Positions 2,995-63,499 of a DNA stretch of 64,000 bases are shown here, one piece after another (the first letter of the stretch is position 1; the number at the start of each line of letters is the position of its first letter). The notes beneath the pieces are model-generated. The model was not told the origin of the DNA. It did not search any database and saw only the letters and a list, made by a program, of their open reading frames with translations. The stretch is from Owenia fusiformis (taxonomy: Eukaryota): positions 8,370,001 to 8,434,000 of the forward strand of contig CAIIXF020000001.1 of NCBI GenBank assembly GCA_903813345.2, written 5' to 3'. A program made the position numbers and the translations under genes.

Positions 2995-3416
2995 ATAGAT
3001 TCAGGCGACCTTTATAGGCATCAGAAGAGTGGAGATAGACTCAGGTGACCTATTTATAGGCATCAGATAAGAGTGGAGATAGACTCAGGTGACCTATTTA
3101 TAGGCATCAGATAAGAGTGGAGATAGACTCAGGTGACCTATTTATAGGCATCAGATAAGAGTGGAGATAGACTCAGGTGACCTATTTATAGGCATCAGAT
3201 AAGAGTGGAGATAGACTCAGGTGACCTATTTATAGGCATCAGATAAGAGTGGAGATAGACTCAGGTGACCTATTTATAGGCATCATTTATGAGCAGAGAT
3301 AGACTCGGGTGACCTATTTATAGGCATCATTTATGAGCAGAGATAGACTCGGGTGACCTATTTATAGGCATCATTAATAAGCAGAGATAGACCCGGGTGA
3401 CCTATTCATAGGCACC
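2995..3416. repeat. 44-bp tandem repeat, about 9.5 copies
   Basis: Unit GGAGATAGACTCAGGTGACCTATTTATAGGCATCAGATAAGAGT recurs at 3031, 3075, 3119, 3163, 3207, 3251, with diverged copies at both ends. Confidence 0.95.
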
Positions 3417-4620: not shown

Positions 4621-5565
4621 AATGCTAATTTCATGTGTGCCCTGTAGGTTGAAACATATATAATCCATACTCAAATATTATCGCTAATAGATCTAGCGAA
4701 GTTTATAATTGATAAAAGTGATTTTCCACATGAACAATGGTCACATCAGCTGGAGGTCCATCATATTAGTTCTTGTCATCTAATCCCTGGAACCAATCAT
4801 TGAAGTTTTAAAAGCAGTGGGCTATTCTCTTCACCTCTCCTACCATAGGGAGATTAGACCAGAGAAAGCAATGCAATGAAATCTCCATGGTGGGCGATAA
4901 TAGATAAAAATAGTAAAATACTACTCACTAATTCAGTGGTTGGCCTATATTTTGTTATAAATTCAGGGGGAATTGTTTCCTCTGGTGTCCATAGTCGCCT
5001 GTTGTCGACAGGCATTGTCACAATAATTTTACTTTCCTGAAATAATGTGAATTTGTCTACTTTTGAATATTTTTAACTTTGTAAAACGCTCCCGGATGTA
5101 GGTCAATTAACAAATGTGGTACGAAAGAACAATTATAACCAGATACGATATTGTAACAAAATTTTGAATTTTTTATTTTTTATTTAGTGCTGTGTACTCG
5201 CTATTGTACATTTATTACACTTGATTTGTGTTTCCCATGTGAGATCATTAAGATCGTAACGTGTAGCAATGTTTGCAGTACTTTAGTTGTAGTTACAGGG
5301 GTGAAATAGCGTTTTCATGACTTCGAATTGGGATTTAATTTATGTTGATCGGGTAGTCGATCGGGTACTTTAAATGGAGGTCACTTTTTGGAATTTACTT
5401 CCTGCTTCTTATTCTATCGAACCGAAGTAAAACTAGAGTAAGTAGCGATCAATTACTGTTAGATTTATTAAGTTCCAATTATTATCTTGTTGTGTGAGCA
5501 ATATTAAAGCGGAATATGGCGTCAATAACTTGTTATTTAACTTTGAAATCTTGTTCGTAAAGTGA

Positions 5566-5587
5566 TGACGTCACCAAGCCTATAAAA
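5566..5587 (+). promoter_or_regulatory. Putative LTR promoter: CRE palindrome plus TATA box
   Basis: TGACGTCA at 5566-5573 and TATAAAA at 5581-5587; same motifs at 13319-13340 in the 3' LTR. Confidence 0.6.
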
Positions 5588-5679
5588 GTATTTCGCCGAT
5601 GTAAACTCGGCAGATTACAGCAAGCTTTTGACTGGGACAGAGCTCCGTTCGAAATATTTTGTGATTTCTAACAATTTTG

Positions 5680-6640
5680 ATTTTGTTGGACTTTGACATT
5701 TTCTGTACATGATAACTTCGACTTAGAATGTTTCTGACTGGCACTTGGGAATATTCTCTGACTTTGTTTCTGTTCACATGTACCTGGCTGTAGACGAATC
5801 TACTTGAGGTTAAACTTGGACAAAATCAATTTTGTTGGACTTATGCCTTTTATCTGTAGATGATAACTTAGACTTGGGATATTTTCATACTTTGAAATAT
5901 TCTTTGACTTTGTTTCGTGATACATCTACCTAGTAGGACTTATGCATTTTAGCTGTAGATGATAACCTAGACTTGGAATATTTTCATACTTTGAAATATT
6001 CTTTGACTTTTTTCTGTGATACATCTACCTGGAGTTGGAGTTGTACATTTTTCTGTAGATGATAACTTGGACTTAGAATATTTTAATCAATTTTTAATAT
6101 TCTTTGACTTTGTTCTGTGATACATCTACCTAGTTGGACTTATACATTTTTCTGTAGATGATAACTTGGACTTAGAATATTTTAATCATTTTTAATATTC
6201 TTTGACTTTGTTCTGTGATACATCTACCTGGAGTTGGACTTGTACATTTTTCTGTAGATGCTAACTTGGACTTAGAATATTTTAATCATTTTCAATATTC
6301 TTTGACTTTGTTCTGTGATACATCTACCTGAAGTTGGACTTGTATATTTTGCTGTGGATGCTAACTTGGACTTCGAATATTTTAATCATTTTTAATATTC
6401 TTTGACTTTGTTCTGTGATACATCTACCGGGAGTTGGAGTTGTACATTTTGCTGTAGATGCTAACTTGGACTTAGAATATTTTAATCATTTTAAATATTC
6501 TTTGACTTTGTTCTGTGATACATCTACCTGGAGTTAGACTTATACATTTTAGTCGTTTATACTAACTTGGACTTAGAGTATTTCTTACTCACACTTTGAA
6601 ATATTCTTCGACTTTGTTCTATTTGAAGTTTGACTTAGAT
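5680..6640. repeat. ~98-100-bp AT-rich tandem array inside the 5' LTR (about 8-9 units)
   Basis: Unit approximately GATACATCTACCTGGAGTTGGACTTGTACATTTTTCTGTAGATGCTAACTTGGACTTAGAATATTTTAATCATTTTTAATATTCTTTGACTTTGTTCTGT. Confidence 0.92.
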
Positions 6641-6654
6641 AATTTATTGTGAAA

Positions 6655-9360
6655 CTTCCTCACTGAAGACGTTCCAGTTGACTTTGTCGAACGGACTCAC
6701 TGAGGCTGGGTCTTTATTTCAGCGACTGTCGAACGGACTTCCTGTAGAAGAGGATCCATTGGACTTACCCAGAGGAGGCTACCTGAGGGAGAAGAGGATC
6801 CACTGGACTTAGCTGAAGAGGCTACCTGAGGGAGAAGAGGATCCATTGGACTTAGCCAGAGGAGGCTACCTGAGGGAGAAGAGGATCCACTGGACTTAGC
6901 TGAAGAGGCTACCTGAGGGAGAAGACGTTCCAGTTGACTTTGTCGAACGGACTCACTGAGGCTGGGTCTTTATTTCAGCGACTTTGTCGAACGGACTTCC
7001 TTAGGAAGAGGATCCATTGGACTTAGCCAGAGGCTACCTGAGGGAGAAAAGGATCCATTGGACTAAGCCAGAGGAGGCTACCTGAGGGAGAAGAGGATCC
7101 ACTGGACTTAGCTGAAGAGGCTACCTGAGGGAGAAGAGGATCCATTGGACTTAGCCAGAGGAGGCTACCTGAGGGAGAAGAGGATCCATTGGACTTAGCT
7201 GAAGAGGCTACCTGAGGGAGAAGACGTTCCAGTTGACTTTGTCGAACGGACTCACTGAGGCTGGGTCTTTATTTTAGCGACTTTGTCGAACGGACTTCCT
7301 GAGGAAGGTGATCCATTGGACTTACCCAGAGGAGGCTACCTGAGGGAGAAGAGGATCCACTGGACTTAGCTGAAGAGGCTACCTGAGGGAGAAGAGGATC
7401 CATTGGACTTAGCCGGAGGAGGCTACCTGAGGGAGAAGAGGATCCATTGGACTTCACCGGAAGAGGCTACCTGAGGGAGACGTTCCAGTTGACTTTGTCG
7501 AACGGACTCACTGAGGCTGGGTCTTTATTTTAGCGACTTTGTCGAACGGACTTCCTGAGGAAGGTGATCCATTGGACTTACCCAGAAGAGGCTACCTGAG
7601 GGAGAAGAGGATCCATTGGACTTAGCCAGAGGAGGCTACCTGAGGGAGAAGACGTTCCAATTGACTTTGTCGAACGGACTCACTGAGGCTGGGTCTTTAT
7701 TTTAGCGACTTTGTCGAACGGACTTCCTGAGGAAGGTGATCCATTGGACTTACCCAGAGGAGGCTACCTGAGGGAGAAGAGGATCCACTGGACTTAGCTG
7801 AAGAGGCTACCTGAGGGAGAAGAAGATCCATTGGACTTACCCAGAGGAGGCTACCTGAGGGAGAAGAGGATCCATTGGACTTAGCCAGAGGCTACCTGAG
7901 GGAGAAGAGGATCCATTGGACTTAGCCAGAGGAGGCTACCTGAGGGAGAAGAGGATCCATTGGACTTAGCTGAAGAGGCTACCTGAGGGAGAAGACGTTC
8001 CAGTTGACTTTGTCGAACGGACTCACTGAGGCTGGGTCTTTATTTTAGCGACTTTGTCGAACGGACTTCCTGAGGAAGGTGATCCATTGGACTTACCCAG
8101 AGGAGGCTACCTGAGGGAGAAGAGGATCCACTGGACTTAGCTGAAGAGGCTACCTGAGGGAGAAGAGGATCCATTGGACTTAGCCGGAGGAGGCTACCTG
8201 AGGGAGAAGAGGATCCATTGGACTTCACCGGAAGAGGCTACCTGAGGGAGACGTTCCAGTTGACTTTGTCGAACGGACTCACTGAGGCTGGGTCTTTATT
8301 TTAGCGACTTTGTCGAACGGACTTCCTGAGGAAGGTGATCCATTGGACTTACCCAGAAGAGGCTACCTGAGGGAGAAGAGGATCCATTGGACTTAGCCAG
8401 AGGAGGCTACCTGAGGGAGAAGACGTTCCAGTTGACTTTGTCAAACGGACTCACTGAGGCTGGGTCTTTATTTTAGCGACTTTGTCGAACGGACTTCCTG
8501 AGGAAGGTGATCCATTGGACTTACCCAGAGGAGGCTACCTGAGGGAGAAGAGGATCCACTGGACTTAGCTGAAGAGGCTACCTGAGGGAGAAGAAGATCC
8601 ATTGGACTTACCCAGAGGAGGCTACCTGAGGGAGAAGACGTTCCATTGGACTTAGCCGGAGGAGGCTACCTGAGGGAGAAGAGGGTCCATTGGACTTCAC
8701 TGGAAGAGGCTACCTGAGGGAGACGTTCCAGTTGACTTTGTCGAACGGACTCACTGAGGCTGGGTCTTTATTTTAGCGACTTTGTCGAACGGACTTCCTG
8801 AGGAAGGTGATCCATTGGACTTAGCCAGAGGAGGCTACCTGAGGGAGAAGAGGATCCACTGGACTTAGCTGAAGAGGCTACCTGAGGGAGAAGAGGATCC
8901 ATTGGACTTAGCCAGAGGAGGCTACCTGAGGGAGAAGACGTTCCAGTTGACTTTGTCGAACGGACTCACTGAGGCTGGGTCTTTATTTCAGCGACTTTGT
9001 CGAACGGACTTCCTGAGGAAGGTGATCCATTGGACTAAGCCGGAAGAGGCTACCTGAGGGAGAAGAGGATCTATTGGACTAAGCCGGAGGAGGCTACCTG
9101 AGGGAGAAGAGGATCCACTGGACTAAGCCGGAAGAGGCTACCTGAGGGAGAAGACGTTCCAATTGACTTTGTCGAACGGACTTCCTGAGGAAGGTGATCC
9201 ATTGGACTTAGCCGGAGGAGGCTACCTGAGGGAGAAGAGGATCTATTGGACTTAGCCGGAGCAGGCTACCTGAGGGAGAAGAGGATCCACTAGACTTAGC
9301 CGGAGGAGGCTACCTGAGGGAGAAGAGGATACACTGGACTTAGCCGGAGGAGGCTACCTG
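6655..9360. repeat. Composite purine-rich tandem array inside the 5' LTR (43/44-bp units interspersed with ~85-bp units)
   Basis: Short unit GAGGATCCATTGGACTTAGCCAGAGGAGGCTACCTGAGGGAGAA, roughly 40 copies. Long unit GACGTTCCAGTTGACTTTGTCGAACGGACTCACTGAGGCTGGGTCTTTATTTTAGCGACTTTGTCGAACGGACTTCCTGAGGAAG, about 11 copies. 771-bp higher-order duplication (identical ORFs at 7269 and 8040). Confidence 0.95.
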
Positions 9361-9733
9361 CACGAGACAAGATACTGGTCCTTGTATGGAACTGGATGTT
9401 CTTTTCATCGCTTTGATTGTGTGACTTCAATCCAATCCCACAATTGATGTTTATATGTATAGACTCACAGTGAATAATAATAACAATAACAACAACAACA
9501 ACGAACATTGGTTCTATTCAAGTTTATTGCAAGGACATTTTGCTATTTGATGTACACAATTTTGGGCCTACAGACGCCACAATATATCGTTTGTTGTGTA
9601 ATAAATATAATTGAATGTTCTGTTGAATCTTTGGTGCAAACACATTTAACGTGTGTCACGTAACCCACAAGGTATACAGAGGTCTATTAGTCCACACTAC
9701 CATAATATCCACAAAAGGGCCTAACTGTTACAC

Positions 9734-9752
9734 TGGCGGCAGCGGTGGGATT
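9734..9752 (+). promoter_or_regulatory. Primer-binding site, tRNA-Leu type
   Basis: TGGCGGCAGCGGTGGGATT, 1 nt after the LTR end. Complementary (one mismatch) to the 3' end of eukaryotic tRNA-Leu(AAG/UAG), ...AATCCCACCGCTGCCACCA, as recalled. Confidence 0.8.
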
Positions 9753-9795
9753 GATATTGTTTCCAAAGACGAACCAGAACTAGAGAATTTACAAG

Positions 9796-12468
9796 ATGGA
9801 ACCAGAGATAAGTGGATTACCTGGCAGAGCAAGCACAGGCTATTGGACGGGAGGAGACTTAGGAGATATGGAAACTCCATCCAACCCCATGAGAAGGAAT
9901 AGAAGAAATCCTCCCCCGAGACCACGATTTCCATTGACATCAACTATAATTAGTAGGCCGTCGGAAAAAGCTCAGATAGCCGAAGAGATGAGAGAACTAA
10001 CCATGATAGAAGGACAGCTTAAAGGGAAGATGTCTGTACTAGGTGATATTGCTGATACCCAGCAGAAACAGCTGAATGCCATAACGACAACTCAGCAGAT
10101 ACAGACCAGTAGTATGTCCCAAATAGTGGAACACCTTGCAGAGAGCAAGAATATTCAACAAGACAGCGAGGAAAAGCATGAAAGGCGACTACAAGAGATT
10201 GTGGGAATACAAGAACGCCGCTTACAAGGGATGCAACATCGCATGGAATCTTTCCAGAAGACTATTTGTGATTCTATTGACAAGTTGCACTCTACTTTGA
10301 CCGTTCCTCAAGTTCAGCGCGAAGCCATTTCGAGGTCACAGACCTATAAAGACGTTGGGTACTCTTCAGAGTTTGATGAGAAACCTATGCCAGATCCTGC
10401 AGAGAAATCTCAAAGGCGACCATTCAGATCACCTACAATGCCAATGAGTCACGGTCAAGATTTAGAAGATGCTAATAATCCTGAGTCACTGGCTCCTCAA
10501 CGGAAGCGACCATGGCCGTTACGAAGGCAAGACAGAGTCTTTGTGCCGCATCAAGACCAGACAGACCATAGAGAACCTACAGATCCAACTAAGATATTTG
10601 ATAAGCCAGATGAAGTGAATCGTTCGAGAAGATGGGATGCTTATAAAGAGTTTAGGAGCCAAAGAGAAAGAGATGGACATCTACCTAGAAGTGGTGATCA
10701 GACAGCACCATCTCTGGCTGAGAGAATTGAAGAAGATAACAAATTCTCGGATTTTTATGCCCCTGAACCGAAGATGTCGAAAGATACTAATATACCTGGT
10801 GTTTCTACAGATTTCCTGAAGATGTTCAACAACTTCTGTGATAAGTTGTCTCAAGATGACAGGTCCAAGTCCAAGAGTCGAATTAAGCCTGACACTTTTA
10901 ATGGAACCACTCCATGGCAAGAGTATCGAGCTTACTTTGAAATTTGCTGTAAAGCCAATAGATGGACTTCAGAGGAGAAGAATGAGTACCTGGCCACAAG
11001 TCTGCGAGGTCCAGCTCAGCAGATTGTGTTGGAGTTGGAAGAGGGATACACCTATGAGCAGTTGATCCTAGCTTTGGAGAAGAGGTTTGGGCCTGGAGGT
11101 AAGGCTGAGTTATATGAAGCTGAACTCGTCAGCAGAATAAGAAAACCAAAAGAGTCTCTTGAGGCATTGGGCCAGGACATTCGAAGGCTAACAGCATTGG
11201 CATACCCTGAGATGAGTAGATCAGCCCAAGACCGCCTAGCCAGACGTAGCTTTGAACAAGCTATAATAGAAGAAGACATACGCAGAGCGATCCACGCAAA
11301 AGAATGTACAACTCTGGATAAGGCGATAGAAATTGCTCTGAAGGAAGAGTCCTACTTAGAGTCTGAACGGATTCGGAAAGGACAAAAGCCAAAGTACAGT
11401 AGAGTGAGTGCGGTGCAAGAAAAAGAGAGTGAGTTCAAGCAGATTACCCAGCTGATAGAGAATATCCAGAAAAGTATGCAAGTGGAATGCAGCAAGAACT
11501 TAGAGAAGATAGCGGAGTTAGTGGAACAACAGAAGAAGCCTAAGTCGGAATCAGGGGCAAACCGAATTAGAAAAGTGGAGTGTTTCTACTGCCATAAATT
11601 AGGACATGTTATTGCCAACTGTTACACTAGAAAATGTGCAGAAAAAATCAAGGAAGCTAAAGAGAGGCAGAGTCAAGTTGCTACAGTAAGGTTCCAATCG
11701 CTACAAGGGAAGGATGTCAAATCTTCCAGAGATACTAAGAGGATAGTGGCTTCTGGAAAAGTTTGTGACATGAATGTTGATTTCCTTGTAGACTCGGGTG
11801 CAGTTAGTAGTATATTGAGTTTACGGATCTACAGAGAGATCCCTGAAGACGTAAGACCCGAGCTTGAGCCACAAAAGAGGATCATTTTGCAAGCTGGCGG
11901 AGAACCTTTAGCTGTTGCAGGTGTTATACACGTTGACGTACACATAGATGATCATAAACAAAATTTAGAAGTATTCGTGGCTGACATTGAGTTTGATGGA
12001 ATTCTCGGTAGCGACTATTTAGCAGCTTCAAGGGCAATATTGGACTATGGCAAATGTTCAATGACTTTTGGACCAGAGAGTCCTAGTGCTGCTCAGATAG
12101 TTAGAGATACCAAACCGTCAACCAATCTGAAGAGTGAAACCCAGAACAAGCAGATTCTTGGAAAAAGAGCAGCCAACCCTTCAGAGAAAGTGACTCATCG
12201 ACCAATAGCATCCAAGAGGAGGACCTTGGATTTACCAGATGGTCACCCGTTTCATGAGCAGCGATATGACAGAGACAGGAGATTGAACAAAGTCCCTGGA
12301 CACCGAGATAACGACCAAAGTACTTCGAGTCATGAAGGCATGCCAAGTACTTATCAAGTGAAGGTGCCTTTGGCTAGAATATATCGAGGAAGATATCAGA
12401 GGCCTCGGCAGAGGAGCGAGATAGATGATAACTGGAGGAAGGGTTCCTGGAACCAAAGAGCAACTTAG
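9796..12468 (+). CDS. gag: Gag-protease polyprotein (890 aa); no RT, RNase H or integrase
   Basis: Gypsy capsid-like segment KPDTFNGTTPWQEYRAYFEICCKANRWTSEEKNEYLATSLRG. CCHC knuckle CFYCHKLGHVIANC. Aspartic protease FLVDSGA...ILGSDYL. No YxDD or DDE motifs and only ~440 bp remain before the 3' LTR. Confidence 0.93.
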   Translation: MEPEISGLPGRASTGYWTGGDLGDMETPSNPMRRNRRNPPPRPRFPLTSTIISRPSEKAQIAEEMRELTMIEGQLKGKMSVLGDIADTQQKQLNAITTTQQIQTSSMSQIVEHLAESKNIQQDSEEKHERRLQEIVGIQERRLQGMQHRMESFQKTICDSIDKLHSTLTVPQVQREAISRSQTYKDVGYSSEFDEKPMPDPAEKSQRRPFRSPTMPMSHGQDLEDANNPESLAPQRKRPWPLRRQDRVFVPHQDQTDHREPTDPTKIFDKPDEVNRSRRWDAYKEFRSQRERDGHLPRSGDQTAPSLAERIEEDNKFSDFYAPEPKMSKDTNIPGVSTDFLKMFNNFCDKLSQDDRSKSKSRIKPDTFNGTTPWQEYRAYFEICCKANRWTSEEKNEYLATSLRGPAQQIVLELEEGYTYEQLILALEKRFGPGGKAELYEAELVSRIRKPKESLEALGQDIRRLTALAYPEMSRSAQDRLARRSFEQAIIEEDIRRAIHAKECTTLDKAIEIALKEESYLESERIRKGQKPKYSRVSAVQEKESEFKQITQLIENIQKSMQVECSKNLEKIAELVEQQKKPKSESGANRIRKVECFYCHKLGHVIANCYTRKCAEKIKEAKERQSQVATVRFQSLQGKDVKSSRDTKRIVASGKVCDMNVDFLVDSGAVSSILSLRIYREIPEDVRPELEPQKRIILQAGGEPLAVAGVIHVDVHIDDHKQNLEVFVADIEFDGILGSDYLAASRAILDYGKCSMTFGPESPSAAQIVRDTKPSTNLKSETQNKQILGKRAANPSEKVTHRPIASKRRTLDLPDGHPFHEQRYDRDRRLNKVPGHRDNDQSTSSHEGMPSTYQVKVPLARIYRGRYQRPRQRSEIDDNWRKGSWNQRAT

Positions 12469-12892
12469 CAGCAGAGTTGTGAGTTAGACATTTTATAGCT
12501 AACTTGTTTGTTAGAGACTTGAAATCGCAAGTCACCCTTAGCCGGAAGTTGCAATTCTTTTGAAAATAGAAGTTTGCATTTCATGTAGTTAGAAATTTTT
12601 GTTTTGGACATTTAACAGTTTTAGGAAACCATAAGATAATGTGTCCAGGATTTTAAAATCTTACATGTACATTGTTTTAGCAATTAGTATTGTTGGTTTG
12701 TACAAATTTTGTAAAGTTTGTTTTTGTAAATTATAGTTAGATTTTCGTGTACATAGTGAGACATTTTGTAAGTTGTACTAGCAACTAGTTGCAAACAATT
12801 GTACAGTTGTATTTCGTTAAGATAGCTAAGTCAGCAAAATTTTGTTATTTTTTTTGTACTTTAAGCTTGGTGTTGTAAACACCAAATTCATT

Positions 12893-12904
12893 GGATTGGA
12901 GGAG
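12893..12904 (+). promoter_or_regulatory. Polypurine-tract-like segment
   Basis: GGATTGGAGGAG directly abuts the TG of the 3' LTR. Confidence 0.6.
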
Positions 12905-15900
12905 TGTAACAAAATTTTGAATTTTTTATTTTTTATTTAGTGCTGTGTACTCGCTATTGTACATTTATTACACTTGATTTGTGTTTCCCATGTGAGATCA
13001 TTAAGATCGTAACGTGTAGCAATGTTTGCAGTACTTTAGTTGTAGTTACAGGGGTGAAATAGCGTTTTCATGACTTCGAATTGGGATTTAATTTATGTTG
13101 ATCAGGTAGTCGATCGGGTACTTTAAATGGAGGTCACTTTTTGGAATTTACTTCCTGCTTCTTATTCTATCGAACCGAAGTAAAACTAGAGTAAGTAGCG
13201 ATCAATTACTGTTAGATTTATTAAGTTCCAATTATTATCTTGTTGTGTGAGCAATATTAAAGCGGAATATGGCGTCAATAACTTGTTATTTAACTTTGAA
13301 ATCTTGTTCGTAAAGTGATGACGTCACCAAGCCTATAAAAGTATTTCGCCGATGTAAACTCGGCAGATTACAGCAAGCTTTTGACTGGGACAGAGCTCCG
13401 TTCGAAATATTTTGTGATTTCTAACAATTTTGATTTTGTTGGACTTTGACATTTTCTGTACATGATAACTTCGACTTAGAATGTTTCTGACTGGCACTTG
13501 GGAATATTCTCTGACTTTGTTTCTGTTCACATGTACCTGGCTGTAGACGAATCTACTTGAGGTTAAACTTGGACAAAATCAATTTTGTTGGACTTATGCC
13601 TTTTATCTGTAGATGATAACTTAGACTTGGGATATTTTCATACTTTGAAATATTCTTTGACTTTGTTTCGTGATACATCTACCTAGTAGGACTTATGCAT
13701 TTTAGCTGTAGATGATAACCTAGACTTGGAATATTTTCATACTTTGAAATATTCTTTGACTTTTTTCTGTGATACATCTACCTGGAGTTGGAGTTGTACA
13801 TTTTTCTGTAGATGATAACTTAGACTTGGAATATTTTCATACTTCGAAATATTCTTTGACTTTGTTCTGTGATACATCTACCTGGAGTTGGACTTGTACA
13901 TTTTGCTGTAGATGATAACTTGGACTTAGAATATTTTAATCAATTTTTAATATTCTTTGACTTTGTTCTGTGATACATCTACCTAGTTGGACTTATACAT
14001 TTTTCTGTAGATGATAACTTGGACTTAGAATATTTTAATCATTTTTAATATTCTTTGACTTTGTTCTGTGATACATCTACCTGGAGTTGGACTTGTACAT
14101 TTTTCTGTAGATGCTAACTTGGACTTAGAATATTTTAATCATTTTCAATATTCTTTGACTTTGTTCTGTGATACATCTACCTGAAGTTGGACTTGTATAT
14201 TTTGCTGTGGATGCTAACTTGGACTTCGAATATTTTAATCATTTTTAATATTCTTTGACTTTGTTCTGTGATACATCTACCGGGAGTTGGAGTTGTACAT
14301 TTTGCTGTAGATGCTAACTTGGACTTAGAATATTTTAATCATTTTAAATATTCTTTGACTTTGTTCTGTGATACATCTACCTGGAGTTAGACTTATACAT
14401 TTTAGTCGTTTATACTAACTTGGACTTAGAGTATTTCTTACTCACACTTTGAAATATTCTTCGACTTTGTTCTATTTGAAGTTTGACTTAGATAATTTAT
14501 TGTGAAACTTCCTCACTGAAGACGTTCCAGTTGACTTTGTCGAACGGACTCACTGAGGCTGGGTCTTTATTTCAGCGACTGTCGAACGGACTTCCTGTAG
14601 AAGAGGATCCATTGGACTTACCCAGAGGAGGCTACCTGAGGGAGAAGAGGATCCACTGGACTTAGCTGAAGAGGCTACCTGAGGGAGAAGAGGATCCATT
14701 GGACTTAGCCAGAGGAGGCTACCTGAGGGAGAAGAGGATCCACTGGACTTAGCTGAAGAGGCTACCTGAGGGAGAAGACGTTCCAGTTGACTTTGTCGAA
14801 CGGACTCACTGAGGCTGGGTCTTTATTTCAGCGACTTTGTCGAACGGACTTCCTTAGGAAGAGGATCCATTGGACTTAGCCAGAGGCTACCTGAGGGAGA
14901 AAAGGATCCATTGGACTAAGCCAGAGGAGGCTACCTGAGGGAGAAGAGGATCCACTGGACTTAGCTGAAGAGGCTACCTGAGGGAGAAGAGGATCCATTG
15001 GACTTAGCCAGAGGAGGCTACCTGAGGGAGAAGAGGATCCATTGGACTTAGCTGAAGAGGCTACCTGAGGGAGAAGACGTTCCAGTTGACTTTGTCGAAC
15101 GGACTCACTGAGGCTGGGTCTTTATTTTAGCGACTTTGTCGAACGGACTTCCTGAGGAAGGTGATCCATTGGACTTACCCAGAGGAGGCTACCTGAGGGA
15201 GAAGAGGATCCACTGGACTTAGCTGAAGAGGCTACCTGAGGGAGAAGAGGATCCATTGGACTTAGCCGGAGGAGGCTACCTGAGGGAGAAGAGGATCCAT
15301 TGGACTTCACCGGAAGAGGCTACCTGAGGGAGACGTTCCAGTTGACTTTGTCGAACGGACTCACTGAGGCTGGGTCTTTATTTTAGCGACTTTGTCGAAC
15401 GGACTTCCTGAGGAAGGTGATCCATTGGACTTACCCAGAAGAGGCTACCTGAGGGAGAAGAGGATCCATTGGACTTAGCCAGAGGAGGCTACCTGAGGGA
15501 GAAGACGTTCCAATTGACTTTGTCGAACGGACTCACTGAGGCTGGGTCTTTATTTTAGCGACTTTGTCGAACGGACTTCCTGAGGAAGGTGATCCATTGG
15601 ACTTACCCAGAGGAGGCTACCTGAGGGAGAAGAGGATCCACTGGACTTAGCTGAAGAGGCTACCTGAGGGAGAAGAAGATCCATTGGACTTACCCAGAGG
15701 AGGCTACCTGAGGGAGAAGAGGATCCATTGGACTTAGCCAGAGGCTACCTGAGGGAGAAGAGGATCCATTGGACTTAGCCAGAGGAGGCTACCTGAGGGA
15801 GAAGAGGATCCATTGGACTTAGCTGAAGAGGCTACCTGAGGGAGAAGACGTTCCAGTTGACTTTGTCGAACGGACTCACTGAGGCTGGGTCTTTATTTTA

Positions 15901-17585
15901 GCGACTTTGTCGAACGGACTTCCTGAGGAAGGTGATCCATTGGACTTACCCAGAGGAGGCTACCTGAGGGAGAAGAGGATCCACTGGACTTAGCTGAAGA
16001 GGCTACCTGAGGGAGAAGAGGATCCATTGGACTTAGCCGGAGGAGGCTACCTGAGGGAGAAGAGGATCCATTGGACTTCACCGGAAGAGGCTACCTGAGG
16101 GAGACGTTCCAGTTGACTTTGTCGAACGGACTCACTGAGGCTGGGTCTTTATTTTAGCGACTTTGTCGAACGGACTTCCTGAGGAAGGTGATCCATTGGA
16201 CTTACCCAGAAGAGGCTACCTGAGGGAGAAGAGGATCCATTGGACTTAGCCAGAGGAGGCTACCTGAGGGAGAAGACGTTCCAGTTGACTTTGTCAAACG
16301 GACTCACTGAGGCTGGGTCTTTATTTTAGCGACTTTGTCGAACGGACTTCCTGAGGAAGGTGATCCATTGGACTTACCCAGAGGAGGCTACCTGAGGGAG
16401 AAGAGGATCCACTGGACTTAGCTGAAGAGGCTACCTGAGGGAGAAGAAGATCCATTGGACTTACCCAGAGGAGGCTACCTGAGGGAGAAGACGTTCCATT
16501 GGACTTAGCCGGAGGAGGCTACCTGAGGGAGAAGAGGGTCCATTGGACTTCACTGGAAGAGGCTACCTGAGGGAGACGTTCCAGTTGACTTTGTCGAACG
16601 GACTCACTGAGGCTGGGTCTTTATTTTAGCGACTTTGTCGAACGGACTTCCTGAGGAAGGTGATCCATTGGACTTAGCCAGAGGAGGCTACCTGAGGGAG
16701 AAGAGGATCCACTGGACTTAGCTGAAGAGGCTACCTGAGGGAGAAGAGGATCCATTGGACTTAGCCAGAGGAGGCTACCTGAGGGAGAAGACGTTCCAGT
16801 TGACTTTGTCGAACGGACTCACTGAGGCTGGGTCTTTATTTCAGCGACTTTGTCGAACGGACTTCCTGAGGAAGGTGATCCATTGGACTAAGCCGGAAGA
16901 GGCTACCTGAGGGAGAAGAGGATCTATTGGACTAAGCCGGAGGAGGCTACCTGAGGGAGAAGAGGATCCACTGGACTAAGCCGGAAGAGGCTACCTGAGG
17001 GAGAAGACGTTCCAATTGACTTTGTCGAACGGACTTCCTGAGGAAGGTGATCCATTGGACTTAGCCGGAGGAGGCTACCTGAGGGAGAAGAGGATCTATT
17101 GGACTTAGCCGGAGCAGGCTACCTGAGGGAGAAGAGGATCCACTAGACTTAGCCGGAGGAGGCTACCTGAGGGAGAAGAGGATACACTGGACTTAGCCGG
17201 AGGAGGCTACCTGCACGAGACAAGATACTGGTCCTTGTATGGAACTGGATGTTCTTTTCATCGCTTTGATTGTGTGACTTCAATCCAATCCCACAATTGA
17301 TGTTTATATGTATAGACTCACAGTGAATAATAATAACAATAACAACAACAACAACGAACATTGGTTCTATTCAAGTTTATTGCAAGGACATTTTGCTATT
17401 TGATGTACACAATTTTGGGCCTACAGACGCCACAATATATCGTTTGTTGTGTAATAAATATAATTGAATGTTCTGTTGAATCTTTGGTGCAAACACATTT
17501 AACGTGTGTCACGTAACCCACAAGGTATACAGAGGTCTATTAGTCCACACTACCATAATATCCACAAAAGGGCCTAACTGTTACA
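12905..17585 (+). repeat. 3' LTR (4681 bp), containing both tandem arrays
   Basis: Copy of the 5' LTR with one extra 100-bp unit (~13810-13910) and a visible substitution (13104 A vs 5351 G). Confidence 0.96.
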
Positions 17586-18225
17586 ATATATTCATATATG
17601 TTGGTTACGATATCAACAGCTCATTGAAATTTAAAGAAATCAAAAGTAATCTCTGATACTTCTAAAAAATTTAATTTAAACTATATTATCCAATGATGCA
17701 AATAATCGTGACGTAGGATTCGAGTTTGTGTATATCACTTTAGTGTCACAAGGATTAAAGGAAACTTGGTGCAGGTAGCTCGAAGTGGAGTTTTGCTATC
17801 TCTTATGTTTCTGCTATTTAGGTTATTTATTAACCTTATGAGTAAGTATTTTTATTATTAACATTGCAACTAAAGTAAATTATTAATGATTGTTGAAATC
17901 TAAAAGTTTATATTTCACTTGAAAATTTGATTTATTGTGAGGGAAGATGTCACAGTCAGAACTCATACTTTCTAAAAACAGAAAAGGTCTACACCCAGAA
18001 ATATGAATCATTTGGAAAATTAACACAGTCCTTATTAAATTGAATAATACAAACTGATGACAGGGACGTGAAAAGTTGTTTATGTGCCACACCCACTCTC
18101 TTTGGAATGTGGCCATGCCGTGAGGGAGGTTTACGCGGTCACGGAAATTATAGTACAGTTGGGGACAAAAATAAATGACAGGTCGATTTTCGATCACCAT
18201 TTCCTAATTATGGTGGTCTGAAAGC

Positions 18226-25200: not shown

Positions 25201-28200
25201 TGCTCGCTATCTCTGATTCTCTCTTTAACTGCATTGAACTCTTCAAAAGGAGGAGGGAAAAGTACGGAATTTATTTGAAAAATGATCAAATTATCGTCTT
25301 TATCTACCAATATTTTGGACATATCACACAAAAAAGCTCACGAACTATTGAAAACAAGCCTTTTTATCAGAACATAGCGCCAGAAAAAGTGGGTAAGTCC
25401 GATTATTTTTTGTATATCAGATCCGAATTATTGATGTTTTTTTTGGTCAACGAAAGTGCCCAAAAACCCCCTCCCCCCCTCGCGAAAGTACTTTCGTCTC
25501 CATATGAACATCGATATTTTGACCCCGCCCCTTAGTAAGTTAATTACTTCAGCATAAAAAATGAAGACAAATAAATAGAAATAGGTTCTGATTTATCAAG
25601 ATATAATAATAACAAAACCTTTTTTGTAGGTGAACCCTCTTTTGGAGGCATTTGGTAATGCACGTACTGTTATGAATGATAACTCAAGTAGATTCGGCAA
25701 GTTCATTGAGCTGAAGTTTACACCCGGGGGAGAGGTCATTGGAGGTATGTGATTATGCAACAGTGTAGAATTTGTATATCAATTTTTACTGCCAACTTTA
25801 TTAAATGCAGTGTCAGGTTATTTAGTATTTTTGTTACCAACAAAAATATTTTATCCCAAACAATTTCTGTTAATTGATAATCAGTAATTAAATGTTCTTT
25901 TGCCATAAGAGAGTTTTTGCAGCCATGGGGATGTATAAATGTATGCACCATATATTGTACGTACAATATTATGATGACCTTTCAGCCAGGATAGATGACT
26001 ACCTACTGGAGAAGTCACGTGTAGTCCACCAGGGTCCTGGAGAAAGAAACTTCCATGTGTTTTACTACATGTTTGCTGGAATGTCCAAAAAAGAATTGAA
26101 CGATCTTCTCTTAGGGAAGCCTGAGAAACATAGGTACATTTTATTCTCCTACTTGGGGGAGGACCTTACCATTTGAAGAAAATAGGCTTTATATATATCC
26201 AAGGGAAAATGTTATGGGTATAAATGAAAATCAAGTATTTTGTTGTAATAGTTTAAAATGTGCTTTATGTGTTAACAGCTAATGTGCTTTCATAGTGCCT
26301 GATTAAAAACATTTGTCTCATTTTTAAGAAAATTATACCACTTTTGATAAATAGAAAAGTGATAACATTCTCTATGAACGCATACAGCACTTTAGGTTAT
26401 TGTTTTATTTGTAGGTTCCTGAAGCCGCGGGATGGAAGTGCAGTTTACACATCTGAGTTAGATTTCTTCTATAACAAAGACATGTATAGAAAGCTGACTG
26501 AGATAATGGAACTAGTTGGTTTCACAGAACAAGACCGCAAAATGATCTTTGCACTCCTGGCTGCCATATTGTATGTGGGCGATATCCAGTTTGAGAAGGA
26601 TCCTGACACTGATGGGGTTTACATTGTAGATGAATATCCCCTTGATGTCGGTAAGTTAACTTTACTATCATGTATCCATGCTCATGATATACAGGCCCGT
26701 CAGATGGGGGGGTGCGATGGGTGCGACCGCACCCCCCTTTGACACCTCCCCCAAAAAAATTAAATTTTTTTTTTTTTAAATATTGAAAAATATTTTTTTG
26801 TACTTTTTTTTCATCATCTCATACACTTTTAAAGTGCCCAGAAAGCATCAAATAACATCTTAAAATTGTAAAATTTTCTACAGGGAGTGGGCCACCCCTC
26901 ACACCCCCCTCAATACAATGGAAAAGTTCTGAATTTATTTTATGTATTGTCTCAGACACTTTTAAAGTGCCCAAGTGCCCACACATCATCACATAGCTCC
27001 TTGATATAGTCAATGTTTCTGGGGGACTAACACTTGCTCCCCTTCGTGATCCCCATCCCACCTCCCTCTGGCACCCTCGCCCCCCTTGACACCCCTCCAA
27101 AAAATTGAAAAAATTGTGATTTTCTCAATTTTTTAATTCACTCATACACTTTGAAAGTGCCCAGAGAGCACTAAATAGCATTTTAAAATTGTAAAATTTT
27201 CTAGGGGGAGTGGGCCACCCCTCACACCCCAAAAAACAATTGAAAAGTTCTGAATTTATTTTATGTATCATCTCAGACACATGTAAAGTGCCCAGACATC
27301 ATCAAATAGCTCCTTGATATAGTCAATGATTCTGGGAGACTAACACTTACTCGCCCTCTTGCATCCCCATCCCACCTCCCCCTTTGACATCCCCCAAAAT
27401 ATTGTGACTTTTTCAAATTTTTTATCGAGTCATACACTTCGAACGTGCCCAGGAAGCACCAAATAGCATCTTAAAATTGTAAAATTTTCCAGGGAAGTAG
27501 GCCACCCCTCACATCCCCAACAAAACAATTGACAAAAATTCTTAATTTATTTCATGCATTGTCTCAGACACTTTTAAAATGCCAAGACTTCATCAAATAG
27601 CACCTTGATATGGTCAATGTTTCTGGGGGCAGATATGGGGACACACACTTGCTCCCCCTCTGGCACCCTAATCCCACTTCCCCTCTGGCATCCCCTTTGA
27701 CACCCCCTAAAATTGAAAAAATGTAATTGTTTTTCAATTTTTTTTTCGATTGACTCATACACTTTAAAAGTGCCCAGAAGCACCAAATATCATCTTAAAA
27801 TTGCAAAATTTTCTGGAAGAGTTGGCCACCCCTCACACTCCCCACAAAACAAAAAACAATTGAGAAAATTCTGAATTTCATGTATTGTCTCAGACATTTT
27901 TAAAGTGCCCAGACATCATCAAATGGCACCTTGATATGGTCATTGTTTCTTGGGGCAACCCCTTGCTCCCCCTCTGGCACTCCAACCCACTTCACTCTCT
28001 CATTCTCTTTGACATCCCCAAAAATAATTTGAAAAAAAATTCACATTTTATTGACTCATTCACTTTAAAAGTGCCCAGAAAGCACCAAATGGCATCTCAA
28101 AAGTGTAAAATTTTCTAGGGGGAGTGGGTCACTCCTCAAAAGTTTGGAAGTTGCATTTGTTAATTTTAAACACTTTAAGAGTGCCTAAAAGTCACCAAGT

Positions 28201-60641: not shown

Positions 60642-63440
60642 CTACAATGGTTTTATCTGTGCTGCAACTACGAAGTCATCTTCCACCTTTGTGAAGTATG
60701 CTTTCCCCTCATATTCAAAGTTCTTGGCAGGAACTCTAACAATTGTCTTCCATCCAAACTCTAATTCAGCTAGTGCCTGCAAATAGGAAGCAAAAAAACA
60801 TATCATAGATCAATTACTAAGTTCACATTTCACGACCCAGCAAAGGAAGTTGACTTACAGCTGGTTCACTCTAGACAACATAATATCAAACGATTCAAAA
60901 GATCCCAAAGTTAGCTGTCCTTAATTTGAATGTATTACTTACTATAGTCACGGGGTGTGTGTTGACTGTTATAAGACCAGTGTATCCCAAACTCCTTGCA
61001 ACCCGCATTGTTTCCACCTCGAGCATATGTATCAGTCGGATATTCTCAGCATCAGAAACGTATTTTGCAGTGGCCACCGAACCTGACCATAGCCACTTAC
61101 CACCAAGCTCAGCAATTACCTTCCTTGCTGGTTCCTCAGCTTGCATTACCAAAGCAGCTATAGGATACAGTAATTCTGGTTCAACTGCAACTTCGTAGTC
61201 GAGTTCAGAGCTGAGTAGCATTCCAGCAGCAACAACTTTACCAGTGACTCTGTTTACGACTCCCATGGAAATATTATCTTGTTCCAAAATTGGCCAGAAT
61301 GTTTTCAAGTGATGCATGTATTGCTCAAATGTACATCCAACATCAATGATTAGCAAATCTTTTCTAATGAAGGCATCGGAGAGAACGACCATCGCTTGTT
61401 CTTTATAGTTGGCATCTGTACAGATGTTGACTAATTCATATGTATCAGTATCTATGACAGACGCTGTGGCATTGTTGTCTTTCTTTTGCCTCAATTTTTC
61501 AATTAGATCCTGAAGACTGGATGAGCCTAGAAAATCTGCAACCGTTAGCAAGACTCCTTTCGATTTCATATCAGCTATTGTGTACATAGCGTTTGCTGAT
61601 GTCCCTCCATTCTGAAAGAAATCTTTTGTGATTATGAGGTTGGCCACGGGAACTTCGATGATCTTTGCAACAGACTCCAATACATTCATACCAAACAGTC
61701 TTGTTTGTATTGGTTTAGTATCGTATTGCTTTCTACGACTGTTGTTTCATTAAACTTGTTTTCATACATCGCCTTCAATGCCATTCGGTCAATTTTCCCG
61801 GCAATTGCTTGAATAGGAAATTTGTCAATCTTCTCAAAGTGCGGCATCATGTAGGTTGGAAGATATTGTGAGCAGAATTCAGAAACTGATTCAACGCTGG
61901 CTTCTCTTTCCGGCATAGCAGTGTAGAAAGTTACTAACGTTATCATACCACTGACAGAGTTATGCACTATAGTTATGGCCTGATCAACCCCAGGGTGACT
62001 CTGCATGACACTTTCAATTTCTAAAATATTTACTCTGTATCCCCGGATTTTCACCTGAAAATCTCTTCGACCTTGGTAAAATATCCTCCCATCGACTATC
62101 TTAGCAAAATCTCCCACTCTGAACAGAAATTCATGGCCTTCGCTTGGTAGGATTGTATTTTTGACAAACATGTTCATTCTGCTTATTTCAGTATAGCCAG
62201 TTGTTAAGCAACCTCCACTGCAGAGCACTTCCCCAGTCTCACCCTTTGGTACTGGCTGTAAGTTCTCATCAACGATATACACATTCGAATTGTATGTTGG
62301 GACTCCAATAGACATAATGTTGTCATTCATTTTTTTCTCAGCATCTTCCAACGATGAAAAAATATCGATGGTAGTATCACCCGCTGTCTCCGTGGAGCCA
62401 TAACCGTTAATGAGGGTGTGCCCATCAGAGAAATAACTGAAGAAATCTCGAACGAGAACAGTTGATACAACCTCACCTCCGAGGATGATAAATTTGAGAT
62501 GGGACAGGCGATTTTTGATTGGATGCATATTGAGACAGACCAACATATTTCGCAAAAGGACCGGAACACAGGCTAGTCTAGTGATGTTATATTGCTCAAT
62601 TGCTTTGATCAACATCTCGGGATCTTGTTTCATTGCCCTTGGCAAAATAATCAAGGGTCGTCCCTTCAGTAACCATGTGTACATTTCCCTAATTGAATCC
62701 ACAAACAACAAGTCTAACAAGGCACATCCAGTCTCATCTTGTTTGAATGGGGTTTTATCCCAGTAGTAATTGATTATGTTCAGCTGACTGGCATGGGTCA
62801 GCTTCACTCCTTTAGGGGTGCCGGTGCTTCCCGAGGTGAACAGTGTGCAAATCAGTGGATTTTCCCCCGTAAGACCACTCTTCATCAGGGCAAAATCAGC
62901 ATCAGTCAAGTTGGTATCTTCAACAGTTGTACAAGAGTCAGCTTCAATTTCATCAAGTATCGAGTCTATGTTTAACACAGGGACTGCTTGGATGGTCGGA
63001 TTGTTAGCATTAGATCCACATGCAAATATGCAAATCGGTTTGCATTCATCCATTATGTACTGCAAACGTTTTGGAGGAAAGACAGAACTCATAGGGGCAT
63101 ATGCACTTCCAAGTTTCAGTATGCTCATCAAAGCGATCACTCGTCTTGCACTGGGTTCCATAAACACGGATATTGTTTTGTCGGGGGAATTCAATGCATC
63201 TATACCGTTATCCACCATTCGTTTCAGTACAATTCGAGCAACCATATTTGCCCTTTTGTTGAGCCGTCCAAAGGTCAGAGTTTCCTCCCCAAATTGGACA
63301 GCCATTTGATTTTCAATTGGTTCCATTCCATTTGATGTATCAATTGTGCCTTTAACAGTGTTTTCAAATACTTTATGAATGAAGTCACCGCCGTTATCAT
63401 TCTCCTCTCCCCTAAGAATACTAAGTGGTCGTTCAGACAT
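60642..63440 (-). CDS. ebony: Ebony-type NRPS-like beta-alanyl-biogenic-amine synthase (A-T-AANAT-like domains), interrupted by a frameshift near 61689
   Basis: Start MSERPLSILRG directly after a TTGCAG acceptor. A-domain motifs FTSGSTGTPKG, FVDS, NGYGSTE, GRRDFQVKIRG, AGKIDR. T domain DFFQNGGTS. C-terminal domain ...VNTHPVTI|ALAELEFGWKT across intron 60942-60777; last exon 60776-60642. The fused product would be about 877 aa, close to insect Ebony length. May be a pseudogene allele or an assembly error. Confidence 0.85.
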
Positions 63441-63499
63441 CTGCAAACATAAGAATGGCATATGCACTGTTTGAACTTAAAGTATAAAGTGGGCATAAA

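Follow-up and report, generated by a model that had tools for sequence, protein, structure and literature searches.

Tandem arrays carrying a recurrent sense-strand motif in the predicted R region of giant-LTR Ty3/Gypsy elements of Owenia fusiformis

Why would a single long terminal repeat (LTR) hold some forty copies of one short unit, and which feature of these units, if any, has been kept by selection? The question is raised by a 64,000-nt stretch of Owenia fusiformis DNA (contig CAIIXF020000001.1, positions 8,370,001 to 8,434,000; hereafter the window), in which a first-pass annotation made from the letters alone had described about 40 hairpins with GA-type loops and proposed that they form a multivalent protein-binding RNA scaffold.

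The array belongs to a retrotransposon whose features are collected in Table 1. The hallmarks of Ty3/Gypsy elements (Metaviridae) are all present, namely a TG...CA LTR pair, a target-site duplication, a primer-binding site (PBS), which we take to be of the tRNA-Leu type, and a polypurine tract. The sole long open reading frame (ORF) is assigned to Gag and aspartic protease by weak Pfam hits, and Pfam detects no reverse transcriptase (RT), RNase H or integrase in the element. The two LTRs differ by only one substitution and one 100-bp unit and the insertion is therefore very young, making this a very young, Gag-protease-only Ty3/Gypsy element. Target duplications at loci L001-L008, L021-L023 and L055-L059 read ATAT, ATAC or GTAT, a strong preference for insertion at RTAY. 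Elsewhere in the window lie a 44-bp tandem repeat unrelated to the array (2995-3414), a diverged repeat of ~320 bp (26778-28138) and, on the minus strand, two open frames, 283 and 596 aa long (60895-63476).

Table 1. Features of the array-bearing element, in window coordinates.
Feature	Position	Strand	Basis or remark
LTR retrotransposon	5152-17585	+	LTR pair and 4-bp target-site duplication ATAT
5' target-site duplication ATAT	5148..5151	+	3' copy at 17586-17589
5' LTR, 4,581 bp, TGTAACA...TGTTACA	5152..9732	+	
U3 (predicted)	5152..5610	+	Origin: Gag-protease 'B' lineage
CRE-like TGACGTCA (5566-5573) and TATA box TATAAAA (5581)	5566..5587	+	Sequence
Predicted transcription start	~5611	+	From TATA position
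U3(B)/R(A) recombination junction	5623..5629	+	~12-18 nt past predicted transcription start
Tandem array of about eight 100-bp units; contains RACTTWG sites, short upstream ORFs	5834..6620	+	
The array: 42 short units of 41-44 nt, 10 long units, 46 sites of RACTTWG, no ATG	6655..9360	+	
Broken copy of 68-codon single-pass membrane-protein ORF	9386..9424	+	Frame stops after 12 codons
Candidate polyadenylation signals AATATA (9581-9586) and AATAAA (9600-9605)	9581..9605	+	
Primer-binding site	9734..9751	+	Single difference from each of the 20 listed relatives
Sole long ORF (894 aa between stops), encoding Gag with a CCHC knuckle plus aspartic protease	9784..12468	+	
Polypurine tract	12893..12904	+	Sequence
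3' LTR, 4,681 bp, with identical array at 14508-17213	12905..17585	+	

The layout described for the array was largely borne out. Where about 40 short units had been noted, 42 of the GGCTACCTG type were counted; the array is free of plus-strand ATG, as claimed, and recurs unchanged in the 3' LTR (2,706 nt, offset 7853). Each of the ten long units has one TTTATT, i.e. the minus-strand AATAAA reported for them, and the three stems named for these units were found 8, 9 and 9 times; the CRE-like and TATA sequences upstream and the plus-strand AATAAA downstream are likewise in place. The arms said to typify most short units apply to part of them, with TAGCC in 16 and TAGCT in 10 of the 42 and TACCC (9), TAAGCC (4) or CACYG (3) elsewhere. 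The last upstream ATG in the window, at 6458, leaves an AUG-free stretch of 2.9 kb ahead of the small ORF discussed below. A count of 40 hairpins reflects the ordinary tandem duplication of a single seed, and an assembly artefact is unlikely, given that 23 LTRs differ in unit numbers and variants. A splice-acceptor-like TCTTTATTTYAG also occurs in each long unit (6693-8991; 10 copies), its TTTATT being the minus-strand AATAAA; a branch-like CTCAC precedes this acceptor by ~23 nt, and in most cases a donor-like AAG/GTGAT follows it after 30 nt (9 in all). An acceptor-like TTTYCAG recurs in the units of L024 and L030. The sparse RNA reads show no splice joint.

The GA-loop hairpin itself did not survive as a conserved structure. 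Local folding gave mean core-pair probabilities of 0.47 for TAGCC, 0.58 for TAGCT and 0.42 for AAGCC arms, and 0.00 for TACCC and CACYG arms; instead of about 40 hairpins, at most 30 of the 42 units form the core stem, roughly half of the time, and the arms of the other 12 are unpaired in context. The stability of the units is at chance level: relative to shuffles, single short units gave z = -0.22, +0.20 and -0.63, a long unit +0.54 and a 474-nt stretch -0.02. Covariation lends the stem no support either, an outcome that the first-pass annotation had itself named as counting against it. No two-sided change was found over 478 units from 16 loci, and 65 distinct variants, diverged copies included, contained 0 vs 2.5 cells in shuffles, with 441 of 500 shuffles reaching the covariation score (two of 67 sequences were removed from this alignment, A2, as off-register, and the 5-nt-loop class is absent from it and included in the 478-unit set). 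Types of change that break the stem outnumber those that keep a pair by 19 to 5. All five pairs are possible in 382 of the 478 units and all five wobble changes occur; the loops are A-rich in the diverged copies L045 and L049, and a homologous sister unit has kept the 5' arm and not the 3' arm. The GA-loop hairpins thus show no sign of selection and are rejected as the functional unit of the array. A search of Rfam 15 for a ribozyme or other known noncoding RNA was negative, as no family matched the array at the gathering threshold (four matches, best E 3.7, all far below).

As the first-pass annotation had required of a functional array, it is common among mobile copies. All 23 LTR ends that are at least 96% identical to the window LTR (the A-type set) carry it, with 5-50 short and 1-11 long units, and unit copy number, which varies tenfold, differs between the two LTRs of one element. 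Carriers include both LTRs of autonomous gag-pol copies as well as solo LTRs, so that a restriction to pol-less copies is rejected and the suggestion that the array is a device of a pol-less competitor fails. Many relatives are found in the 500-Mb genome, some with ORFs of ~2,700 aa. In one autonomous relative, L043, the Pfam order is PR-RT-RH-IN, the PDB entries that match best are 4ol8 and the Ty3-G Gag-Pol entry 7q5b, and the RT is closest to Ty3 among solved structures; sequence-search matches reach ~63% identity and are mostly unnamed. The L043 polyprotein extends ~600 aa beyond the integrase domains (L043:4740-6612), a part that contains low-complexity repeats and has no match in Pfam.

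The window element is a mosaic of two lineages. Its R start, arrays, U5 and the 5' half of gag match an autonomous lineage, A (78-100%), and its nucleocapsid-protease part, 3' UTR and U3 match a Gag-protease lineage, B (81-92%), the U3 being 81-89% identical to L010, L011 and L032 and without a match to autonomous A copies. In soybean, LTRs are reportedly swapped between non-autonomous and autonomous elements. For Onsen, recombination during first-strand transfer within R has been described to yield such mosaic LTRs, so that the A/B make-up is as expected (PMC5668417). The junction near the U3/R border and the autonomous relatives in the genome fit this kind of exchange, but the transferred R-U5 piece would here be ~4 kb. 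Two copies with both LTRs, L007 and L008, enclose only ~240 bp of gag end and 3' UTR, a LARD-like structure with the array intact. At L012-L018 and L020, ~500 bp of B-type U3, TATA box and R start lie inside another dispersed repeat with GGTCGAAGGT units, and the rest of the LTR is absent.

Several observations place the array downstream of the transcription start and probably in R. A TATA-like box is located at the corresponding place in 21 LTRs, several of them with non-homologous U3; the junctions of differing U3s with the common R start 25 and 42 nt past the TATA box, and homology to two other autonomous copies bearing a third U3 begins at 5606. No AATAAA or ATTAAA occurs between the TATA box and 9600, and the AATATA at 9581-9586 is common to most families, in most of which it lies 120-190 nt from the LTR end. 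The array is thus most likely contained in a very long R of ~4 kb and would be present at both ends of the RNA. Of the original placement in a ~4-kb R, the position downstream of the TATA box stands, and the boundaries of R are predicted ones. RNA reads over 9361-9501 lean to the strand of the gag reads in all three raw runs (depth 7.8/0.66, 3.2/0.57 and 2.0/0). At low depth, three raw RNA runs and one contig set revealed over 9361-13586 neither a transcription start nor a polyA pile-up, nor any splice joint leading into the ORF, the 79-105 reads per run coming mostly from other copies and showing no pile-up of ends; polyA-tailed genomic copies were not found. A near-palindromic ACATTTAACGTGT at ~9640-9660, some 90 nt before the LTR ends, is conserved in most families and is a candidate U5 stem. 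Retroviral R regions measure 11-150 bp (PMC3601003), and in plants the rice element Retrosat2 has an LTR of >3.2 kb with an annotated R of ~2 kb, its U5 being conserved and its U3 and R not (PMC3485330). In the account given there, the R of this plant element contains only seven short CTTTTT repeats, whereas the R predicted here, in an animal, reaches up to ~4 kb and is mostly array.

In related families the LTR measures 2.3-4.9 kb, and the corresponding interval is occupied by arrays whose units are 28 to 234 bp long. The GA hairpin is not among the features common to them; a short motif, RACTT(A/T)G, is. On the sense strand after the TATA box, this motif (RACTTWG) reaches 9.7-23.0 per kb in 20 of 21 LTRs (4.3 in the last, L030). 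In U3 it is missing from 16 of the 21 and occurs at 1.4-2.3 per kb in the remaining five, and its density is 0-1.6 per kb in gag and 0.21 per kb in 51.5 kb of flanking window. A de novo comparison of 6-mers ranked ACTTAG as the top shared word, at least 5-fold enriched in 8 of 9 groups, and ACTTTG third (7 of 9). With tandem copies collapsed, 10 representative LTRs retained 80 sense vs 6 antisense sites where 10.5 were expected, counts that are not independent, as the motif was identified post hoc in related families, whose 44-nt and 91-nt units have partial homology. In the same collapsed set, one-mismatch variants numbered 128 vs 125.6 expected and exact motifs were in ~8-fold excess. Nine of ten loci added later have the same sense enrichment, and one decayed copy has only 4 sites. 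The 21-LTR set omits L028 and L029, whose LTR bounds were not found by the rule used; counted apart, these two more distant relatives show no such enrichment, having 0 and 3 sites over 3 kb. L028 has a 2-kb purine-rich array of 26-30-bp units before the PBS (L028:5194-7217), with no RACTTWG. In the window array, 16 of the 42 short units have neither motif nor stem, and among 161 distinct units the motif positions are no less variable than others.

The array is best explained as a variable-number tandem repeat in the predicted ~4-kb R of a giant-LTR Ty3/Gypsy clade, whose units would grow and shrink via misaligned template switching during reverse transcription and via unequal exchange between LTRs. 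What selection would retain is the short motif in high copy number, rather than the GA hairpin, thereby maintaining a multivalent platform for one protein at both RNA ends. To this reading, i.e. slippage in a very long R that amplifies units and selection that keeps many copies of a short motif binding one protein on the RNA, we give about an even chance. Of the scaffold originally proposed, multivalent binding stays plausible, and the GA-loop hairpin is lost as its unit. The binder may be a host RNA-binding protein that serves stability, export or translation across the long leader; it is slightly favoured over Gag because the B-type LTR sits on Gags that are ~60% alike over a 50-residue capsid stretch. 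Of the candidate binders, HNF4, tailless, hnRNP A1, GLD-1, miR-252 and U1 mimicry would each fit part of the motif only.

At least some of these arrays appear to have been shaped as RNA, because in the sister family B the motif is part of a 20-bp stem that is favoured on the sense strand (z = -3.9, -2.7 and -2.9 vs -1.0, -2.2 and -0.2 in antisense) and covaries. Two-sided changes occur at 5 of the 20 pairs, 91.4% of cells are paired and 0 of 500 shuffles reach the covariation score, which is inflated by relatedness and by a search pattern that pre-selects part of the 3' arm (alignment A1; 5 of 40 matches, off-register or unrelated, were removed beforehand). The partner arm has been kept as a G-U-tolerant pairing partner and not as a second copy of the site. 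A base-paired motif in B units is awkward for a single-strand binder.

Alternatively, the motif might be a DNA site, multimerised as an enhancer or insulator downstream of the promoter as known from the 5' UTRs of the Drosophila elements gypsy and ZAM, a reading which we hold to be unlikely. Its single orientation can arise from head-to-tail duplication alone, and the reverse complement of RACTTWG presumably resembles HNF4/nuclear-receptor half-sites. Gypsy-type arrays downstream of the transcription start act as insulators or enhancers, and kilobase-long repeats of the gypsy insulator, the Mag lineage and non-autonomous Culex elements have been proposed to be regulatory (PMC3286476). The present arrays are like these tandem cis-elements in their kilobase size, their position downstream of a promoter and their variability between families; as described in that source, however, the latter lie in 5' or 3' UTRs between the LTRs, whereas the arrays here are inside the LTR, hence present twice, and share one sense motif across families (PMC3286476). 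With the gypsy-type insulator or enhancer array, only the position downstream of a TATA box is in common. The near-absence of the motif from U3, the sense-only bias that persists once redundancy in R is removed (80 vs 6) and the character of the partner arm in B units all argue against a DNA site.

Neutral satellite growth is another reading of low probability. The long R would then be a recombination-prone sink in which any unit amplifies, and the motif an ancestral relic or a template-switch hot spot. This would accommodate the tenfold variation in copy number, also between the LTRs of one element, the many variants without motif or stem in the window array and the partial homology between units of different families. 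Yet neutral decay does not predict an ~8-fold excess of exact motifs without any excess of one-mismatch variants, and the presence of the array in 23 of 23 LTRs of the window type and the two-sided changes in the B stem also argue against neutral growth.

Directly behind the array, families A, B and E have an ORF of 67-68 aa, which the proposal of a stand-alone lncRNA overlooks. A hydrophobic helix occupies the N-terminal part of the small protein, three of its cysteines are invariant, its linker is acidic and rich in proline, and its C-terminus is conserved; AlphaFold2 predicts a helix at residues 3-42 and an unstructured tail (mean pLDDT 66.9). A genome search returned 60 matches, 57 of them free of stops over at least 62 of 68 codons. 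Copies from different families are 51-59% identical, and dN/dS is 0.09-0.42 in 8 of 10 pairs, the other two being saturated; judged by these substitution patterns, the small ORF is under purifying selection. No such frame exists in families C, D, F and G and in some B copies. No homologs were detected at E <= 0.001 among 1.84 billion representatives, and matches to TMEM52 and other generic single-pass proteins (Pfam, Atlas) were sub-threshold or generic and not taken as homology. Of the 23 A-type LTRs, 16 retain an open 68-codon frame (lacking its ATG in at least one), one has an altered frame, and in six, both window LTRs included, the frame ends after 12 codons. Since broken copies, the window element among them, have still inserted, the product is not needed in cis, and it appears to act in trans. 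RNA reads at this spot come from copies of the unbroken type. Upstream of the ORF, AUG is depleted in A and B (8-13 vs 31-75 expected) and not in E (48/46 and 91/74).

Small (63-107 aa), single-pass membrane proteins termed sORF2/FAST-like have been described in MDG1-group insect retrotransposons (PMC11952523). The ORF studied here is like them in size, in its single helix, in purifying selection, in its sense orientation upstream of gag and in belonging to env-less Gypsy elements (PMC11952523). Their N-myristoylation motif MGxxxS/T is missing, however, as all 10 aligned copies begin M-E-L-D, and so are the ~30-residue ectodomain and the juxtamembrane polybasic region, the hydrophobic stretch starting at ~residue 5 and being followed by few basic residues. 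Other differences are the conserved cysteines followed by acidic and proline-rich residues, and the location inside the LTR, which places the ORF twice in each element and also in solo LTRs. In a quite unlikely but more far-reaching scenario, the LTR would serve the clade as a second gene: a transcript with both ends in the ~4-kb R would use the motif-multimer leader to recruit a host RNA-binding protein that localises or helps to translate the message for the 68-aa protein, a membrane protein of a new kind, which might be an env-independent, non-FAST exit or entry factor or an antagonist of host defence, supplied in trans even from solo LTRs.

A cluster of m6A sites, marking the RNA or driving cap-independent translation of the downstream ORF, is very improbable. 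DRACH is the m6A consensus; the array has 62 GGACT (GGACU in RNA), and 0.95 and 0.85 of 79 non-redundant sites agree with D and R at motif positions -2 and -1. DRACH density is, however, not consistently raised, with 14.5-26.9 per kb in B-family R vs 20.7 in the background and 23-35 in gag, so that some families are above background and others at or below it; moreover, the U(A/U)G tail is kept though methylation would not require it, and the motif is paired in B stems.

Retroviral psi hairpins of the HIV-1 SL3 type have a short stem and a purine-rich loop and lie in the unique leader. A short purine-loop stem can also be drawn in the units studied here, next to a Gag with a CCHC knuckle, but it shows no covariation, has chance-level stability and lies upstream of the PBS, in R. 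The idea that ~40 GA-loop hairpins bind the nucleocapsid of Gag, giving a pol-less element an edge over its helper, agrees with the pairing potential of the units, the CCHC knuckle and co-packaging with relatives, as judged by the mosaic make-up, but it is largely refuted by the lack of covariation; the chance-level folding, the excess of stem-breaking change types, the A-rich loops in diverged copies and the same array in autonomous helpers also count against it, and a signal in R would probably mark LTR-only transcripts too; we accord it hardly any credence.

Precedents exist singly for Gypsy tandem arrays, for a long R in a plant element (PMC3485330) and, in insect elements without env, for small membrane ORFs. 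A literature search, mainly of open-access papers, mostly at listing level and without Repbase, returned no report of the motif in retrotransposons, of the clade or of an LTR-encoded membrane ORF in such elements, and the combination inside an animal LTR, with one motif across families, seems to be without a report in the literature searched. Surveys with an upper limit of 1,500 bp for the LTR (e.g. PMC6238403) would miss such elements. If the reading favoured here is true, an animal Gypsy clade would reverse-transcribe and transfer an R more than 10 times longer than retroviral ones, a short RNA motif would be kept in dozens of copies despite the turnover of the units bearing it, and a selected membrane micro-protein would be encoded within the LTR itself.
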